Below are positions 48,761 through 63,825 of a stretch of 64,000 nt of DNA, piece by piece. Made by a program: the position numbers and the translations under genes. Position 1 is the first letter of the stretch. Each line of letters starts with the position of its first letter. The notes below the pieces were generated by a model, which saw nothing but the letters and a program-made list of their open reading frames with translations, had not been told where the DNA came from and did no database searches. The stretch is from an uncultured Pelagibacteraceae bacterium (GTDB taxonomy: Bacteria > Pseudomonadota > Alphaproteobacteria > Pelagibacterales > AG-422-B15), in NCBI GenBank assembly GCA_902526005.1, contig CABZIW010000001.1, positions 3,013 to 67,012 on the forward strand. Direction: 5' to 3'.

Positions 48761-49648
48761 TTATAAAAGACCGCGCTTTTGATATTGCTGCACAGATGTT
48801 TTACCTACTTTAAAACCTTTTTCCTGAAGTTCCCGAGCAATTGCTCTTTGAGACAATCCTTTAGCACGGAGTGCTTTAGCTGTAGGTAACCATTCTTTTG
48901 CTTTTTCCAAGGCTAGTTCTTGTGCTTTTTCTGTCCCAGTTTTTTCTTCATAAGAATATAATGTTTTCATAACTCTACCATCAGCATACTTTATATATCC
49001 TTTTTTGATAGCTTCATTAACGTTATTGGCGATTGTCAGATTTGAGTCGATAAATGTTTTATTATTTTCATACGTAATTCCTCTAAGCCTATCATTTAAG
49101 TTTTTCACTCTTTCATTTATTAAATTTATATCTTTTTTATCATTTGCATCTAAGCTTCCTTCTTCCTCAATAAAAATCTTACTTATTTCTAAAAATGATT
49201 TTTTATTACAATTTTCAATAAAAAATAAAATTTGATCATTTGTAAATGTTGTTCTGCTTCCTGTTGGTCTTTCAGTTGGATTAAAACTTTGATCTTTGTT
49301 TTTATAATCCTCTTTTAGGTAATCCTGTGATGCAGTATCGGATGGTTTTTTTCCGGCAAGTATGTCTTTAATTATGCTGTCTTCTCTTTCAAGAAACCTG
49401 AGCACATGTCTCACAGTTTGCTCACCAACTATTTTCATCTTTCTTGAAATATCAAGTGCTGAGAGTCCCTCATTTTCTCGAATTTGCCAAATTCTTATAA
49501 GTTGATTTTGGTCTAATTTAGTAGATCCGTATCCTCCTAAACTTAAATATTCTTTATATTTAATTTTAAGTTGTGAATCGCTATATCTAATTTTGTTAAA
49601 TTCATTTGCTCTGCTCCTTGTAGCACTTCCTGCTTTCAAATATTTCAT
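48761..49648 (-). CDS. Hypothetical protein with three putative HTH segments
   Basis: GLSALDISRKMKIVGEQTVRHVL; FTNDQILFFIENCNKKSFLEISKIF; KGLSQRAIARELQEKGFKVGKTSVQQY. Confidence 0.6.
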   Translation of the reverse strand: MKYLKAGSATRSRANEFNKIRYSDSQLKIKYKEYLSLGGYGSTKLDQNQLIRIWQIRENEGLSALDISRKMKIVGEQTVRHVLRFLEREDSIIKDILAGKKPSDTASQDYLKEDYKNKDQSFNPTERPTGSRTTFTNDQILFFIENCNKKSFLEISKIFIEEEGSLDANDKKDINLINERVKNLNDRLRGITYENNKTFIDSNLTIANNVNEAIKKGYIKYADGRVMKTLYSYEEKTGTEKAQELALEKAKEWLPTAKALRAKGLSQRAIARELQEKGFKVGKTSVQQYQKRGLL

Positions 49649-50703: not shown

Positions 50704-52392
50704 TTATATAATTCTATATTTTTCCCAATCATTTTTAAATAATTTTAATTTTTCTGGATGATCTATCATTATTTTAAGCAAAATTGTTAGACCGTCTGAA
50801 AAAGCTCTTTGACCGTCTGCAAGTCCAAAAGCATGCTGTAACTCATGCGTAAGCGTTGACAGGATTGATCCAAAGCTATGAGAAAAAAGTTTTTCATTGA
50901 GTAATACAGTTTTTTCATCAAATTGACTTTGTGAGTCTTTTAATTCGCCTAAAACTTTATCAGACTTTAAAACCTTAAATTGGATATTATACAGTGCTCC
51001 ATATTCGGACTCTACTTGCACAAGATCAACAGCTTCTAAACAATAAAAAACACCGGCAAAACCAGGTGCAACTTCGCGCAGACATTGTAAAAGGAAATTT
51101 ATAGCCTTTGTTTCTTTGGAATTGAGCAATCTAATTGCCTCTTTTTTGGCTTTTTCCTCTGCCTTTTTCTTTTTTTCCTGCAAAATCTCAACGCTTGATT
51201 TAATGCCCAATCTGCTGAAGTAACTTGGTAACTTTTTATACCCCTTCTTCTCAAAGTGTCTGTCTTGACTATATATCTTTGGTTCAAGTTCCCAGTACAA
51301 CCTTCCATAAATGCTGCTGTAACGAGGTGAGCTTTCGGAATAGTAACCTTTGATACGTCCAATAGGTGAAAATAACTTTTCAAGATAATCTTTTGACTCT
51401 TCCGATTTTAAATTCCAGACATTATTACATATACTGCTTAATAGTGGGTGCCCTTGTCCTTTTAACCACAATGGCTTCAATTCTTCCAAAATAAATTTTA
51501 TTGCAGGATTTAATGCACTATCTCTATAGTGCAGTCCAGACTGAGCGACAATATTAAAAAGCTGAGATCTTAAGTCTTGCGTAAACGAATTTCTATCGCG
51601 ATCACTTGCAACTTTGTTTTCAATCTTTTTATATTTTTTTTCAATTACAAGAATGAGAGGTAAGTCAATTTCACCTCTATTTAGTCCATTGTAAAAAATT
51701 ATTCCGTTTTCTTTATTAGATTTATAAAAAGATATATGATTATATGAATGTAGTAATTCACCTAAATGTGGATTTTCTGGCCAGAAAAAATGATCTTCTA
51801 GACCACACTTAAATGCATCGCGTATATTTTCTTTAAATGTGTTAATAACAAACTTTGAACCAGTTTCAGAATTAGAAATTTTAAAAAAATTATAAATTAA
51901 TGGTCTTAATCCAACCTCATTTTCTTCAGGTGAAACAGAGACAGCTACAGCTTCATTCCCTGATATAAATATTGGATATTCAATTCCTAATTTAATTAGA
52001 CTAACTACTGAGATCAGGCTGCCTTCCCCAAATTTTCCAAGTTGGGTTTCATCATTTGCTTTTGTTCCTCCTATATAAAACAGTAACTTCAAGTTGTAAT
52101 CAGAAGGGCCTTGTACAATAATTTGTCCAGATTTAATTGATGTTTTAATATCAGAAATACTAAACCCTTGTGAGATAGCACCATCCCTTGCATTTTGAAG
52201 AACTTCTCTACAAATAAAAGATGGGGAATAATCAACACCCCAATCCAATGAAACGCTGCTCTCAAATGAGTAATCATATTGAACTTTTTTTAAACCTGGG
52301 ACTTTTTTAAGCAATTTAGAAATTTCATTAATTTCATTTTTAGCAATTAGTGCTGTATCTTTTTTTATTGAATTTTTTATTTGTTTTCTCAT
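50704..52392 (-). CDS. GHKL-type ATPase fused to a C-terminal zinc-metallopeptidase motif
   Basis: REVLQNARDG (N-box), QLGKFGEG (G2 box), and HELQHAFGLAD (HExxHxxGxxD) near the C terminus. Confidence 0.75.
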   Translation of the reverse strand: MRKQIKNSIKKDTALIAKNEINEISKLLKKVPGLKKVQYDYSFESSVSLDWGVDYSPSFICREVLQNARDGAISQGFSISDIKTSIKSGQIIVQGPSDYNLKLLFYIGGTKANDETQLGKFGEGSLISVVSLIKLGIEYPIFISGNEAVAVSVSPEENEVGLRPLIYNFFKISNSETGSKFVINTFKENIRDAFKCGLEDHFFWPENPHLGELLHSYNHISFYKSNKENGIIFYNGLNRGEIDLPLILVIEKKYKKIENKVASDRDRNSFTQDLRSQLFNIVAQSGLHYRDSALNPAIKFILEELKPLWLKGQGHPLLSSICNNVWNLKSEESKDYLEKLFSPIGRIKGYYSESSPRYSSIYGRLYWELEPKIYSQDRHFEKKGYKKLPSYFSRLGIKSSVEILQEKKKKAEEKAKKEAIRLLNSKETKAINFLLQCLREVAPGFAGVFYCLEAVDLVQVESEYGALYNIQFKVLKSDKVLGELKDSQSQFDEKTVLLNEKLFSHSFGSILSTLTHELQHAFGLADGQRAFSDGLTILLKIMIDHPEKLKLFKNDWEKYRII

Positions 52393-52419: not shown

Positions 52420-52617
52420 TTAATATGGCGAAATGGAGACCCAAAAGCACTCAGATTCATCGTCCGGCCCTTTAGCTAAGCCTTTGATATCAAATACTCT
52501 CTCATCCTCATAATGAGTAATCTTCAATTCATTCGCATAAACAGCTAATTCTGAATAATCTCTAAACTTATAATCCTCAAGAGGAGCGCAGAGTAATACT
52601 ATAATAGTTTCGATCAT
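52420..52617 (-). CDS. Small hypothetical protein (65 aa)
   Basis: Fills the operon gap, 10 nt after the previous stop; no motif recognised. Confidence 0.55.
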   Translation of the reverse strand: MIETIIVLLCAPLEDYKFRDYSELAVYANELKITHYEDERVFDIKGLAKGPDDESECFWVSISPY

Positions 52618-52627
52618 CTAAATTTTT

Positions 52628-52852
52628 CTAATTAATAAGGTTCTTATTTTCATGAAACCATTTCCAAACCTTATTTTTGGTTTTAAAATATTTGATAGCT
52701 CTATCTAGGCTTTCATTAAGAAAATCTCTAAAATCTTGTTTCTGACCTTCAAGAGCAAGCAACTCACTTAACTCATTAATTTTTTCAATTGTATCCTCAT
52801 TAAGAAGTAATACTTTTTTGATATTAGGATCATTTTCTTTTTTTAATTTCAT
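52628..52852 (-). CDS. Small protein, possible ribbon-helix-helix DNA-binding fold (74 aa)
   Basis: KKVLLLNEDTIEKINELSE...FRDFLNESLDRAI strand-helix-helix pattern; 4-nt overlap with upstream gene. Confidence 0.55.
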   Translation of the reverse strand: MKLKKENDPNIKKVLLLNEDTIEKINELSELLALEGQKQDFRDFLNESLDRAIKYFKTKNKVWKWFHENKNLIN

Positions 52853-54372
52853 CTCATTGCCTCTAACTCTTTTTCTTTATTTTCAATATATGTCCGCGCT
52901 GAAACCAAGAGTTGAAATTTTTCATTTGGAAGATCTGGGTTACTATTCTTATTATTATTTAGATCGTCATTATCAATTTCGTTGGCTTTGCAAATCTTTT
53001 CTAATTCATCTTTGGCAGTTTCAATTGTTAAATAGTTTCTGTATTCATAATTTTCACTTAGCAATCTGTTGGCTATTTGATGTTCTATATCTCTAATATC
53101 TGATTGGGACATGACAGATGGTTCATTATCATAAATTATTTTTTTTGCTATATGTACCATACGCATATCTGTGAAAGCTTTTATTTTTTTATACTTATCT
53201 TTGTACTCATCTAATTGGTGAAATTCACGCGCAAGTGCCTTATCTGAATTAGTAAAAAAACTTTCATAAATCATATCTTCGTAATACTCAGATTTTTTTT
53301 TAGCAAACATTTCATCGTTATCGACAGTGAATGCCGAAACAACCTTATTTTTGTATTGATTATTATTCTCTAAATTCTCATGCATTTTTTGTATTTCTTC
53401 TAAATTACCAAGACTGCCTATTTGTTCTTTGGATAGGTTTGCAACCTTAGGATCGATCAAAATTGGATTTTTGTTTAAATAAATTTTTCTAAATATTCTA
53501 TTTTTTCGATCATCTTTTCTTTTAGATATTTCTGCAGGGGATAATAAAAAATCATCCTCTGTAAAATTTTTCAGATCAACAAATATAGCAGAACCGTCAT
53601 TACCCATCCCGCAGTAGGAATATGTATACAAATATTCATTTCCTCTCATGAAAAAAGTCGACAAAAAATAATTTTTTGAATTACTCAGTAAATCAGAAAC
53701 TCTCTCTTTATGTGCAGTCTGTTGCATTTGTTTCCATATTTCTGGATCTTGTTTTGAGTATTTTTTGACAAAATTCATCATTAGTTTTGTATCAACAATT
53801 GCTGTATGCAATTCACCTTCAGCTTTAATAGAATTTTCATCACAAATAAGGCCAAGTTGAAAACTAGGTTTGCCAGTATTTGGATGTAAAGGAACTTTTA
53901 AATCACTTTTACCAAAACTTTGTAAGGCATGCGCAAAGCTTAGTGCATCGATTTCGTAATTAAAGTTACCGGACGGAGATTTGGTATTCATGAAGTATAA
54001 ATCATCGAGCTGAAGGTTCATATAGGCATTGGCAACTCTAAATATGCCTCTGTCAAAGTTGTTGTTCCATGCTATCCAGTAAATATTGTATTTTTGCCGC
54101 CACTCACTAAATTTTTTATTAATCACTCTACTTAACTCATAGCTTGACATATTTTGTCGTAAATTTTCTTCTGTTAAATTATTTGTGAAACTTGCTCCTG
54201 GGCTTAAAAAATTTGTCTTATTTAAACGACATTTTTCATCGAGGACGTCTTCAATTTCAAAGTTTTCTGGATCAACGAGGATTGCAGTTATTTCCAACAG
54301 CTGTGTAAAGCCTGTATTTGGAATATTGTGTGAACTTTCCGTATCAAAAAAACAATATCTAATATTTGTCAT
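52849..54372 (-). CDS. sbcB: Exodeoxyribonuclease I-like DEDDh 3'-5' exonuclease
   Basis: ExoI FFDTES, ExoII WNNNFDR, GKPSFQLGLIC..N, ExoIII HTAIVD; long ExoI-like C-terminal extension. Confidence 0.75.
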   Translation of the reverse strand: MTNIRYCFFDTESSHNIPNTGFTQLLEITAILVDPENFEIEDVLDEKCRLNKTNFLSPGASFTNNLTEENLRQNMSSYELSRVINKKFSEWRQKYNIYWIAWNNNFDRGIFRVANAYMNLQLDDLYFMNTKSPSGNFNYEIDALSFAHALQSFGKSDLKVPLHPNTGKPSFQLGLICDENSIKAEGELHTAIVDTKLMMNFVKKYSKQDPEIWKQMQQTAHKERVSDLLSNSKNYFLSTFFMRGNEYLYTYSYCGMGNDGSAIFVDLKNFTEDDFLLSPAEISKRKDDRKNRIFRKIYLNKNPILIDPKVANLSKEQIGSLGNLEEIQKMHENLENNNQYKNKVVSAFTVDNDEMFAKKKSEYYEDMIYESFFTNSDKALAREFHQLDEYKDKYKKIKAFTDMRMVHIAKKIIYDNEPSVMSQSDIRDIEHQIANRLLSENYEYRNYLTIETAKDELEKICKANEIDNDDLNNNKNSNPDLPNEKFQLLVSARTYIENKEKELEAMR

Positions 54373-54375
54373 AAT

Positions 54376-54762
54376 TTAATATAAAAATTTCTTTGTTTTT
54401 TTATTTAATTCATTTTTTTTAGTAAAGGGCCTTAAGTATCTTTGCTTAAGGAAACGATCTAATCTTTCATTTCTTATTTTTGATAATTCGTTTGAGTAAT
54501 TTTTCCAATGAAATGTAAAGGCATTTTCATATAATATTTCATGAGCAGTTTTTAATTTGTAAGACAATAATTCAACTCGTTCTCTGGTTTCTTTATAGAT
54601 TTTTAATTTTTTATTAAAAATTTTTTTTTGTCTCCAATACATAAATAATTTATTTCTTATGTCACTATCTAGAGCCAGGCAAGAAAGGAAAGAAAAAAAT
54701 GTAAGAACAAACCTAGCTCTAGAAGCAATCGACGCCGAAACTTTTTTTACAATATGTATCAT
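54376..54762 (-). CDS. Basic hypothetical protein (128 aa)
   Basis: 4-nt overlap with XRE gene and 3-nt gap to the exonuclease; no motif recognised. Confidence 0.6.
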   Translation of the reverse strand: MIHIVKKVSASIASRARFVLTFFSFLSCLALDSDIRNKLFMYWRQKKIFNKKLKIYKETRERVELLSYKLKTAHEILYENAFTFHWKNYSNELSKIRNERLDRFLKQRYLRPFTKKNELNKKTKKFLY

Positions 54763-55406
54763 ATATCCTCATCTCTTAACCATGTATTTTGATATTCAAT
54801 TTCATCACTAATTTTAACAACATTATTGGATGAGATTATTTCAGTATTTTTAATGAAACGATTTCTACTTTGCAAAATGACAATAACCTGGTTGATATGA
54901 TTTCCCTTTTTTAAAAAGTAGTTGATGTTTTCATAATTTAACTGTCTAACAATTTCCTTAAGATTTACTTCGTACTCTGTTTTTTTATTCTCAAGTATTT
55001 GATATTCGTTATGGTCAAAATCATAAATAGATTTTTTTTCCCACATTTTTTCAATCTCTATTAAAGCCTGACTTAGTTTAAAAAGATTTTCTTTAAAACT
55101 AACCGTAACCACAGTTTTTAGATATTCACTAGCTTCATGCCAAGTATCATCATATTCGATGTAAGGAATTTTTGATTTCAGGACAGCACAAAGACTTCTT
55201 ATGTCTTGGTAGGCCTGATTTGTATCTCGTAACGACTCCATTCTTGACTCGAGAATAATTCGTTTATCATTTGGTATTGGATGCTCCCCTCTTTCATAAG
55301 CCTCATATGTTCTAAGTGGCAAATCTAATTTTAGAGACATGTCGCGTTGCGTTATTTTTAATTCCCTTGTTCTTAAAATCTTTAACTTTTCAGAAAAATC
55401 ATTCAT
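54759..55406 (-). CDS. XRE-family HTH transcriptional regulator (start reassigned to MNDFSEKLK)
   Basis: KLKILRTRELKITQRDMSLKLDLPLRTYEAYERGE; the track's TTG at 55415 overlaps the -10 box. Confidence 0.85.
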   Translation of the reverse strand: MNDFSEKLKILRTRELKITQRDMSLKLDLPLRTYEAYERGEHPIPNDKRIILESRMESLRDTNQAYQDIRSLCAVLKSKIPYIEYDDTWHEASEYLKTVVTVSFKENLFKLSQALIEIEKMWEKKSIYDFDHNEYQILENKKTEYEVNLKEIVRQLNYENINYFLKKGNHINQVIVILQSRNRFIKNTEIISSNNVVKISDEIEYQNTWLRDEDI

Positions 55407-55413
55407 GCTAGGC

Positions 55414-55442
55414 AATTTATCGAAATTCTAGCGACATGTCAA
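55414..55442 (-). promoter_or_regulatory. Sigma70 promoter of the XRE-led operon, with palindromic operator candidate
   Basis: TTGACA (55442-55437), 17 bp, TAAATT (55419-55414); GACATGTC palindrome overlaps the -35 box. Confidence 0.65.
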
Positions 55443-63145: not shown

Positions 63146-63427
63146 TCAATCGTTAATTTTTTTTTCTAAGCATCTAAAGTCTTTTTCCAATCTGTTTCCA
63201 TCAAAATTGATGTGGCAAATATTCAACTGATGCCTTTGGCACCAAATTTGAAGACCTCTATCGGTGAAGCCTACATCAATTCTTGAATAATCCTGTAGAG
63301 ATTTTGCATCTGTCTGACCGCTGATAAATTCATCAGAACATTTAACACAAACAATTGGCTCTTTGATTTGATTTAACAAATAACTAAGTTTTTCTATATC
63401 TTTCTCTAGATAATTGTCTTCACTCAT
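63146..63427 (-). CDS. Hypothetical protein with CxxC...CxxH (93 aa)
   Basis: CVKC and WCQRH motifs; 4-nt overlap with the nuclease gene. Confidence 0.75.
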   Translation of the reverse strand: MSEDNYLEKDIEKLSYLLNQIKEPIVCVKCSDEFISGQTDAKSLQDYSRIDVGFTDRGLQIWCQRHQLNICHINFDGNRLEKDFRCLEKKIND

Positions 63428-63825
63428 TCACACCAGTCTTTCTTATTATTTTTATCATACACAACTCCTAAACCGTTTAAGACCATTATTTTTGAAACGT
63501 TTTCACCATCTACAATGATATAAGCTAAGATTCTATCAAAAAAATCTCTATTGTATTCAGTTTCAAATTCAATTTTTTTCCCGTCAGAAATATATTTATT
63601 AATATAGTTACGTGCTTCAATGCCAAGCGTATATTCTTTTTCACATTTAGGATGTGAAATTTCAGGTGTATCAAGATCGAGTAGTCTAACTTTATCATTA
63701 TTTTCTTGATATGTTACATAGCATGTATCGCCATCATAACAAAACAAGTCATTTTGTTTTCTTATTTGTATGTCTGCAAATGAATTAGAGATTAATAAAA
63801 TTAGAACAGAGAAAATTCTTATCAT
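63424..63825 (-). CDS. Thermonuclease (SNase-like) with signal peptide
   Basis: YDGDT, VRLLDLDTPE, RDFFDRILAY. Confidence 0.9.
   Translation of the reverse strand: MIRIFSVLILLISNSFADIQIRKQNDLFCYDGDTCYVTYQENNDKVRLLDLDTPEISHPKCEKEYTLGIEARNYINKYISDGKKIEFETEYNRDFFDRILAYIIVDGENVSKIMVLNGLGVVYDKNNKKDWCE

Follow-up and report, generated by a model that had tools for sequence, protein, structure and literature searches.

A widespread, unnamed bacterial protein family joins a GHKL-fold head to a putative zincin-like domain

The window analysed here, a stretch of 64,000 nucleotides from a contig of an uncultured Pelagibacteraceae bacterium (CABZIW010000001.1, positions 3,013 to 67,012; assembly GCA_902526005.1), carries on its reverse strand an open reading frame (ORF) of 562 amino acids at positions 50704–52392. 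The product, hereafter the window protein, very probably combines a clamp of the GHKL fold with a zincin-like domain. From the N-terminus onwards it is divided into a GHKL domain, a transducer-like middle domain, one charged linker helix and the zincin-like domain (Table 1). The N-terminus is hydrophilic and no signal peptide was read from the sequence. Translation of the coordinates gives REVLQNARD, GKFGEGSL and DRDR in the first two domains and HELQHAFGLAD near the C-terminus, the HExxH of the last lying exactly at 50847–50833. The ORF and all the motifs quoted in a first-pass annotation, which a model had made from the letters of the DNA, were found in the positions given there.

The window protein belongs to a large, unnamed family of bacterial proteins. 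A word-indexed search returned 18 relatives with 38–98% identity, all of them without a Pfam domain or a name, and a second search of the same kind with the alignment as query returned only this close clade. Among 1.84 billion cluster representatives, a profile search retrieved 1316 proteins with E ≤ 1e-3; of these, 539 reached E ≤ 1e-10 and 125 reached E ≤ 1e-30, and many are about 550 amino acids long and aligned end to end. When a second search was seeded with one planctomycete member, 250 further proteins were found, none with a Pfam domain and all annotated as 'hypothetical protein' save one 'predicted metal-dependent hydrolase'. No model of the family was found in Pfam, NCBIfam or PADLOC, and the window protein itself had no match in Pfam (E ≤ 1), NCBIfam or PADLOC. 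In PHROGs the sole match was phrog_6077, a phage family of unknown function, which covered residues 38–185, i.e. the GHKL core (E 4e-7). The nearest relatives come from TARA Oceans and other marine assemblies. Loci gathered with the planctomycete-clade alignment as query belong to Planctomycetota, Verrucomicrobiota (including Akkermansia), Chlamydiota (Parachlamydiaceae), Chloroflexota (Anaerolineaceae), Holophagales, Spirochaetota (Treponema), Latescibacterota and Firmicutes (Clostridia), and one to an Asgard (Hodarchaeota) metagenome-assembled genome.

Conservation was read from an alignment of 51 diverse full-length members with 22–73% identity to the window protein. Thirteen positions were invariant in 51/51: G119, G122, E123 and G124 in the GHKL domain, R265, D266 and R267 in the middle domain, and H516, E517, H520, D526, F531 and L535 in the C-terminal domain. 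In addition, R62, Q66, N67 and D70 were each conserved in at least 90% of the sequences. Among the full-length family members collected, 189 of 202 keep HExxH, and since the motif is kept across such divergence it is not a chance match. The fusion of a GHKL fold with HExxH claimed in the first-pass annotation, which had named lack of conservation of HExxH in homologues as evidence that would overturn it, is real and present in nearly all full-length members.

An AlphaFold2 model of the window protein reached a mean predicted local distance difference test score (pLDDT) of 81.7. In the Foldseek comparison of the model with the PDB, the best matches were fragments of TRAP1 comprising the N-terminal and middle domains (E 4.6e-7, probability 1.0), followed by full-length HtpG, Hsp90 N domains, MORC4, MORC2, the ATPase domains of viral topoisomerase II, and MutL. 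The global template modelling (TM) scores of these matches were low (0.2–0.3), as expected for the superposition of multi-domain proteins, and targets consisting of the N domain only gave a TMt of about 0.4. The succession that defines the GHKL superfamily, a Bergerat fold and then a transducer or middle domain, is present in the model and in the Foldseek alignments, and the modelled structure supports a GHKL fold for the N-terminal two thirds of the protein. Sequence models of curated GHKL families were less responsive: neither HATPase_c nor HATPase_c_3 of Pfam matched the window protein even at E ≤ 1, and hhalign against the HATPase_c_3 protein encoded elsewhere in the window gave a probability of 7%. 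The NCBIfam model NF047352 (sacsin N-terminal ATP-binding-like) matched three of ten relatives over the GHKL stretch below its cut-off of 50 bits (E 0.003–0.02).

Two of the three nucleotide-site motifs of GHKL proteins are present. Motif I, ExxxNxxD with its catalytic acid and Mg-binding Asn, corresponds to E63, N67 and D70; the alignment has D or E at position 63 in 48/51, N67 in 48/51 and D70 in 49/51 sequences, and 'RD' or 'RE' stands ahead of QN..D in 224 of 226 members. Motif III, GxxGxG, is formed by the invariant glycines of the lid. At motif II, the register of which was set by hhalign to the HATPase_c_3 protein of the window together with a model strand at residues 90–95 and a helix at 101–108, the family has [S/T/Y/Q]-[A/G]-P, with Asp in 0/51, and the DxGxG box had rightly been called degenerate in the first-pass annotation. 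The site has thus lost the Asp that binds adenine but kept its catalytic acid, Mg-binding Asn and lid glycines. The DRDR loop of the middle domain may be a catalytic or gamma-phosphate sensor loop, such as other GHKL proteins place there.

The string EKKKKAEEKAKKEA, at about residues 405–418, precedes the C-terminal domain as had been annotated; what had been described as a charged coiled coil was predicted as a single helix (residues 400–418). The C-terminal domain was also modelled separately, from residues 395–562 and an alignment of 70 sequences (pLDDT 80.8). The order of elements in this model is linker helix, short strand, helix, beta-hairpin and strand, HExxH helix, a loop with D526, and two helices, which is compatible with a minimal zincin. 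As in zincins, the conserved HExxH lies on a helix (residues 507–520; 113–129 in the domain model) that carries both histidines, and D526 is in the loop right behind it. Two residues are candidates for the third ligand of the putative metal site, the invariant D526 and D533, which was found in 48/51 sequences and lies on the next helix.

The signature of the family is HExxHxFGxDGSRxFTDxLT. Counted from the second His, Asp stands at +5 in 196 of 212 members; nine of the 212 have it at +6, among them the window protein, in which a one-residue insertion confined to its subclade has shifted it. Because the spacing of Asp is not conserved, the match of the window protein to HExxHxxGxxD is an accident of the subclade and implies no metzincin relationship. 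The extended zinc signature read by the first-pass annotation in the metzincin or snapalysin sense was accordingly rejected; the conserved motif is HExxHxFGxD, and its nearest look-alikes are in Wss1 and Zincin_1. The recurrent sub-threshold Pfam matches of 70 members were mostly to zincins (YgjP-like 5, WLM 5, SprT-like 4, M48 2 and Zincin_1 2), with best E values of 0.0015 for SprT-like, 0.0024 for YgjP-like and 0.034 for WLM. A profile of the C-terminal domain gave three sub-threshold chains in the PDB, two of which were aligned on HExxH, namely 3e11, a 'predicted zincin-like metalloprotease' (HEIAHHFGIDD), and Wss1p (HELTHNLFGPHD). As far as can be judged from such matches, the domain looks most like minimal zincins of the Wss1/SprT/Zincin_1 type.

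Some members depart from the common layout. Repeats follow the HExxH domain in certain distant relatives, TPR in P0120, P0122 and P0141 and WD40 in P0135, and this 'switch-effector-repeat sensor' layout is typical of prokaryotic conflict and signalling proteins. HExxH has been lost and the domain kept in some of the repeat-bearing relatives (P0122, P0141) and in some relatives of about 620–650 amino acids. Two distant members, P0143 and P0157, reach 1300 amino acids; P0157, which has two GxYGEG boxes, may have arisen by tandem duplication. In Firmicutes, two paralogues of the family were found in tandem (L043, 6297–9458; L044, 3435–7108). One paralogue of such a pair keeps the N-box and is without HExxH, and the other keeps HExxH and DRDR. 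The N-box acid is lost in the HExxH-type paralogue of L044 and also in the lone HExxH-type gene of a short contig (L045, 1093–2664). Such complementary decay is the pattern that an obligate heterodimer with divided labour would leave, and it is the one, indirect hint of dimerisation. It further suggests a single functional unit in which HExxH and the residues of the nucleotide site work together.

The gene of the window protein is part of a tight string of genes on the same strand, with gaps of -4 to +27 bp (Table 1). The RmuC gene immediately downstream is a probable operon partner. The first residues of its product, MEVITIISLIISFLAIAVVAYLF, are strongly hydrophobic, a feature shared with the membrane-anchored ShdA of the Shield defence system. 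The 507-amino-acid protein encoded upstream, predicted to be a divergent ExoI-like exonuclease, has no match in Pfam or NCBIfam, and its homologue in locus L002 carries ExoI_C. No reverse transcriptase was matched among the locus proteins scanned. A scan for promoters and terminators gave results at chance level and was uninformative. The string sits in a defence-type island. A 133-amino-acid SNase-like protein (E 1.2e-11; 63424–63825, reverse strand) and an unassigned 93-amino-acid ORF (63146–63427, reverse strand) were found at the far edge of the island, the boundary of which lies beyond the end of the window.

Table 1. Features of the window protein and of the gene string around it (positions in the window).
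Feature	Position	Strand	Evidence
Whole gene: GHKL-fold / transducer / linker helix / zincin-like protein (predicted domains)	50704..52392	-	ORF; 18 close homologues; 1316 profile matches; AlphaFold2 model, pLDDT 81.7
GHKL (Bergerat-fold) nucleotide-binding-like domain, about residues 50-135	51988..52245	-	Foldseek: TRAP1/HtpG/Hsp90 N, MORC, MutL; weak sacsin-like matches; phrog_6077
Motif I / N-box R62-E63-VLQ-N67-AR-D70; family consensus RDxxQNFxDA	52183..52209	-	Column conservation
Motif II (DxGxG) position, degenerate: VQGPS here, [STYQ][AG]P in the family	52102..52116	-	Column frequencies
Motif III / G2 lid box GKFGEGSL; family GxYGEGFK (MORC-like), LGSxK at residues 107-111 ahead	52015..52038	-	Invariant glycines
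Middle (transducer-like) domain, about residues 140-395	51208..51975	-	Foldseek to TRAP1 N+middle and HtpG over about 480-500 columns; pLDDT mostly 85-97
DRDR motif, residues 264-267, middle domain	51592..51603	-	R265, D266, R267 invariant; D264 in 47/51
Charged linker helix, residues 400-418, contains EKKKKAEEKAKKEA	51139..51195	-	One long helix in whole-protein and domain-only models; sequence poorly conserved
Zincin-like domain (putative), residues 420-562: helix, beta-hairpin and strand, HExxH helix, two helices	50707..51135	-	Domain-only AlphaFold2 model
Putative metal site H516-E517-xx-H520-AFGLA-D526	50815..50847	-	H516, E517, H520, D526, F531 in 51/51
XRE-type helix-turn-helix (HTH) protein	54759-55415	-	
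128-amino-acid ORF	54376-54762	-	
Predicted ExoI/SbcB-like 3'-5' exonuclease, 507 amino acids, upstream of the window protein	52849-54372	-	PADLOC RTasSbcB, E 1.7e-40
74-amino-acid ORF	52628-52852	-	Counterpart in L048; no family match
65-amino-acid ORF	52420-52617	-	Counterpart in L048; no family match
RmuC-family nuclease, 3 bp downstream of the window protein, hydrophobic N-terminal helix	49645-50700	-	Pfam RmuC, E 5.9e-58
295-amino-acid protein with HTH-like C-terminal end, last in string, 4-bp overlap with RmuC	48761-49648	-	Weak HTH matches

The neighbours of the homologues were compared using 591 ORFs from 47 loci in an all-against-all BLAST and by a census of 137 flanking genes with Pfam and PADLOC. 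The operon type of the window, including the exonuclease, recurs in L048, where the homologue is 98% identical, and in L002 (54%). In both the homologue is adjacent to RmuC, and in L002 also a homologue of the 295-amino-acid protein follows RmuC (cluster c16). The operon of a second marine clade consists of a small ORF, the homologue, ARPP-1 and RmuC. The ARPP-1 protein (PF20208, E 3.8e-63) follows the homologue in L006 (2596–3543) and L049 (2040–2990), and in L006, the longer contig, RmuC comes next, so that ARPP-1 lies between the homologue and RmuC. A third marine clade has the order 183-amino-acid protein, 208-amino-acid protein, homologue and a DUF4116 protein of about 750 amino acids, with genes for CHAT and trypsin nearby; large CHAT-domain proteins (981 and 1303 amino acids) and a trypsin-like protease adjoin this operon in L001 (5323–9525) and L003 (881–4792).

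Outside the marine clades no conserved partner gene was found in the 47 loci and 137 flanking genes, and many homologues stand alone between divergently oriented genes. An obligate two-gene system for the whole family was rejected for lack of a family-wide partner. Because no neighbour is conserved outside the marine clades, the core function appears to be autonomous and the partnership with RmuC and ExoI lineage-specific. Genes for AbiE, type III and type IIG restriction-modification, mad2, integrase and XRE were occasional neighbours. HTH_3 was found in only three of the 137 neighbouring genes, and the XRE gene of the window lies four genes from that of the window protein. A repressor protease of the ImmA/IrrE type was rejected in the absence of systematic pairing with XRE, and the idea, raised in the first-pass annotation, that neighbouring XRE, ribbon-helix-helix and HTH proteins are cleaved found no comparative support in the same census.

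The proteins of the family are cytoplasmic, with a head and transducer of the Hsp90/MORC/MutL type, a charged helix and a minimal HExxHxFGxD domain. What they do is inferred here from motifs, predicted structure and gene context, and to the reading that the window protein is a GHKL-gated metallopeptidase of a conflict system we give about an even chance. Like other GHKL proteins, it would then be a dimeric clamp. Closure of the N-terminal domains, driven by nucleotide, ligand or client, would position or unmask the C-terminal metallopeptidase, and this would cut a target protein. The family would be an accessory conflict module in defence against phages and mobile elements or in the regulation of such defence, and most of its members would work alone. 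In the marine clade to which the window belongs, the gene may have been recruited to an operon with RmuC, to which the ExoI-like exonuclease would have been added in the operon type of the window; there its role might be sensing or regulation, e.g. processing of the RmuC nuclease or of a phage protein. That the protein acts on DNA-bound or phage proteins is a reasonable idea. The genes for CHAT, trypsin, ARPP-1, AbiE, type III and IIG restriction-modification, mad2 and integrase near homologues support a context of conflict. The logic also has two published precedents, VcSduA, in which a GHKL head and clamp are fused to a nuclease (PMC12137116), and Shield, in which a metallopeptidase-like protein controls an RmuC nuclease (PMC10270631).

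Several results weigh against this reading. Positions 94–96, where the adenine-contacting Asp of motif II would be expected, are without Asp in 51/51 sequences, and to our knowledge this Asp binds adenine in every characterised GHKL ATPase. With this Asp lost throughout the family, ATPase activity is at most putative, and gating by nucleotide may not apply; the 'ATP-regulated' of the first-pass annotation is on this ground not yet supported. The same holds for 'protease'. Foldseek comparison of the C-terminal domain produced nothing significant in the PDB (best E 3; the aspzincin 1g12 was among the matches with E 5.2 and TM 0.32) or among the predicted viral structures of BFVD (best E 0.12; M10 and IrrE-like entries with E 1.1–4.3). 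The Pfam scan of 51 and 70 members gave no match above threshold and no curated peptidase family, and searches of PDB sequences with the single protein and with profiles of 19 and 51 sequences found nothing meaningful. As neither a significant fold nor a significant profile match was obtained, the zincin assignment is based on the motif and on sub-threshold matches, and the protease fold is putative. As for defence, no PADLOC model matches the family, defence genes near the homologues are occasional and not systematic, and the genes for ExoI and RmuC serve in ordinary DNA repair as well. Neither tblastn of the whole window protein against 50,697 phage records nor that of relative P0041 against 72,556 plasmid records gave a match, and an origin of the family in phages or plasmids was rejected on this basis.

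Other explanations account for parts of the same evidence. At this locus the downstream RmuC could be the effector and the GHKL-zincin protein its dedicated regulator, restraining or activating it by proteolysis by analogy with the control of ShdA by ShdB in Shield. RmuC (Pfam E 5.9e-58, hydrophobic N-terminus) follows directly after a gap of 3 bp, the marine operons have it downstream of the homologue in three independent versions (window/L048, L002 and L006), and in Shield an RmuC nuclease and a peptidase-like regulator do form a defence system (PMC10270631). We nevertheless hold this explanation to be unlikely. Most members have no RmuC nearby and many are alone, which means that RmuC cannot be a condition of the family's core function. 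In addition, ShdB is of the M15 fold and lacks a GHKL part, the genes come in the opposite order to those of Shield, and PADLOC matched the RmuC of the window only to its model of RmuC associated with reverse transcriptases. The two DNA nucleases of the operon would also suit a role in DNA repair, in which a MutL/MORC-like clamp brings a Wss1/SprT-like protease to proteins trapped on DNA, the nucleases working with it. The nearest look-alikes of the motif, Wss1p, WLM and SprT-like, are crosslink-protease families, and the GHKL part is similar to the MORC/MutL branch, which clamps DNA (LGSxK...GxYGEGFK). Such a DNA-protein-crosslink protease is, however, quite unlikely in our judgement: no zincin match reaches its threshold, the family has a patchy distribution and is accessory and not core, no link with nucleases is conserved outside the marine clade, and the TPR and WD40 fusions and defence-type neighbours fit immunity or signalling better.

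The loss of the motif II Asp opens an explanation without any ATP-gated protease, in which the GHKL part is a nucleotide-free scaffold or client binder and HExxH does other chemistry or holds a structural metal. The invariant Glu inside the glycine-rich lid (GxxGEG), the lack of a significant peptidase match for the C-terminal domain and the database entry naming one member a 'predicted metal-dependent hydrolase' speak in its favour. Some YgjP-like zincin-fold proteins are reported to hydrolyse nucleotides or small molecules. Against it stand the strong constraint that keeps the acid, Asn and Asp of the N-box and the glycines of the lid, for which a dead nucleotide site would hardly account, and the invariance of the Glu in HExxH, which points to catalysis more than to a structural metal; we consider this explanation improbable. 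Very improbable is a housekeeping chaperone-protease in which an Hsp90-like head feeds misfolded proteins to the fused protease. The best structural matches are indeed to the Hsp90-family chaperones TRAP1 and HtpG, but these are to fragments of the N-terminal and middle domains, and Foldseek aligned no Hsp90 C-terminal dimerisation domain. Moreover, the family is sparsely and patchily distributed, its genes occur in varying surroundings, integrases, restriction-modification and Abi genes among them, and the window gene is in a defence-type island.

The preferred GHKL-gated metallopeptidase could be taken one step further. The family might represent a hitherto unrecognised class of single-protein immune or surveillance systems, in which a clamp without canonical adenine recognition senses a foreign protein, a nucleic-acid structure or a non-adenine nucleotide and switches on a fused Wss1-like metalloprotease. 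RmuC and ExoI in the marine clades, TPR and WD40 repeats elsewhere, and the split active and inactive heterodimers of Firmicutes would then be add-ons. This proposal is tentative, and on the whole we doubt it more than we believe it.

The fusion itself is real and widespread, and a large family spread across many phyla is still unnamed and without a model in Pfam, NCBIfam or PADLOC. In the literature searched, most subscription journals being outside its scope, no account of a GHKL-HExxH or GHKL-protease fusion was found. GHKL clamps drive nucleases (MutL, VcSduA/Shedu), topoisomerases, chromatin compaction (MORC) and chaperoning (Hsp90). What is new would be a GHKL-controlled effector with a new type of effector domain and an atypical nucleotide pocket, as predicted from motifs and models. 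If the protein is a gated protease, it provides a new effector type for GHKL-based conflict systems and a tractable single-gene system for studying how a Bergerat-fold domain is switched when the canonical adenine-binding Asp is lacking. If the likeness to Wss1 and SprT is true and DNA is the cue, it is a possible bacterial counterpart of the eukaryotic DNA-protein-crosslink proteases. Also flagged here is a conserved operon of RmuC, ExoI-like and GHKL-zincin genes in marine bacteria that are abundant but about whose defence repertoires little is known.

Compared with known systems, the window protein resembles GHKL-effector fusions, yet it fails membership of each specific family considered. 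With the snapalysin-type metzincins it shares the literal HExxHxxGxxD, from which the spacing in its family differs, and an M10 entry of BFVD, not significant at E 1.1, was the sole metzincin among the weak matches. The likeness to minimal zincins (Wss1/WLM, SprT-like, YgjP-like (DUF45) and Zincin_1 3e11) is closer and includes the HExxH helix, FG close behind it, an acidic or His ligand, and a small domain of about 140 amino acids with the order helix, beta-sheet, active-site helix and helix. The third ligand of Wss1 is a His at +6, whereas the candidate in the present family is an Asp at +5, and the downstream DGSRxFTDxLT is specific to the family.

With Hsp90, MORC and MutL the family shares the fold of the N-terminal and middle domains (Foldseek E 4.6e-7 to 1e-3) and the N-box [DE]xxxNxxD. 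The MORC signature is 'SxK...GxYGNGFK', which the lid 'LGSxK...GxYGEGFK' of the family resembles. Unlike these proteins, the family has no DxGxG, has an invariant Glu in the lid, and carries a zincin-like C-terminal domain instead of a dimerisation or endonuclease domain. The survey of GHKL and MORC proteins by Iyer, Abhiman & Aravind (2008, PMC2292703) mentions no peptidase fusion.

In Shield, which is reported only in Pseudomonas, the RmuC-domain nuclease ShdA is negatively controlled by the metallopeptidase-like ShdB (PMC10270631). The likeness consists of an RmuC nuclease with a hydrophobic N-terminus beside a gene for a predicted metallopeptidase in a defence-island setting. The partner genes of Shield are downstream of shdA, whereas here the predicted peptidase is upstream of RmuC; the arrangement with ShdA first, an M15-fold ShdB and ShdC-E was not found, and neither PADLOC nor Pfam relates the window protein to an M15 peptidase.

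VcSduA (Shedu type I-D) of Vibrio cholerae is a single-protein defence system composed of GHKL, clamp and PD-(D/E)xK nuclease (PMC12137116). No DUF4263, other Pfam or PADLOC match was found in the window protein, and no sequence relationship with VcSduA was detected. VcSduA keeps the GHKL motifs I–IV, whereas the present family is without the Asp of motif II, and its effector is a DUF4263 PD-(D/E)xK nuclease in the place of the HExxH domain. In both, one polypeptide joins an N-terminal GHKL domain, a clamp-like middle part and a C-terminal effector, established or predicted, and VcSduA, which has been modelled as a dimer and acts as a stand-alone phage defence, is the best architectural analogue of the window protein.

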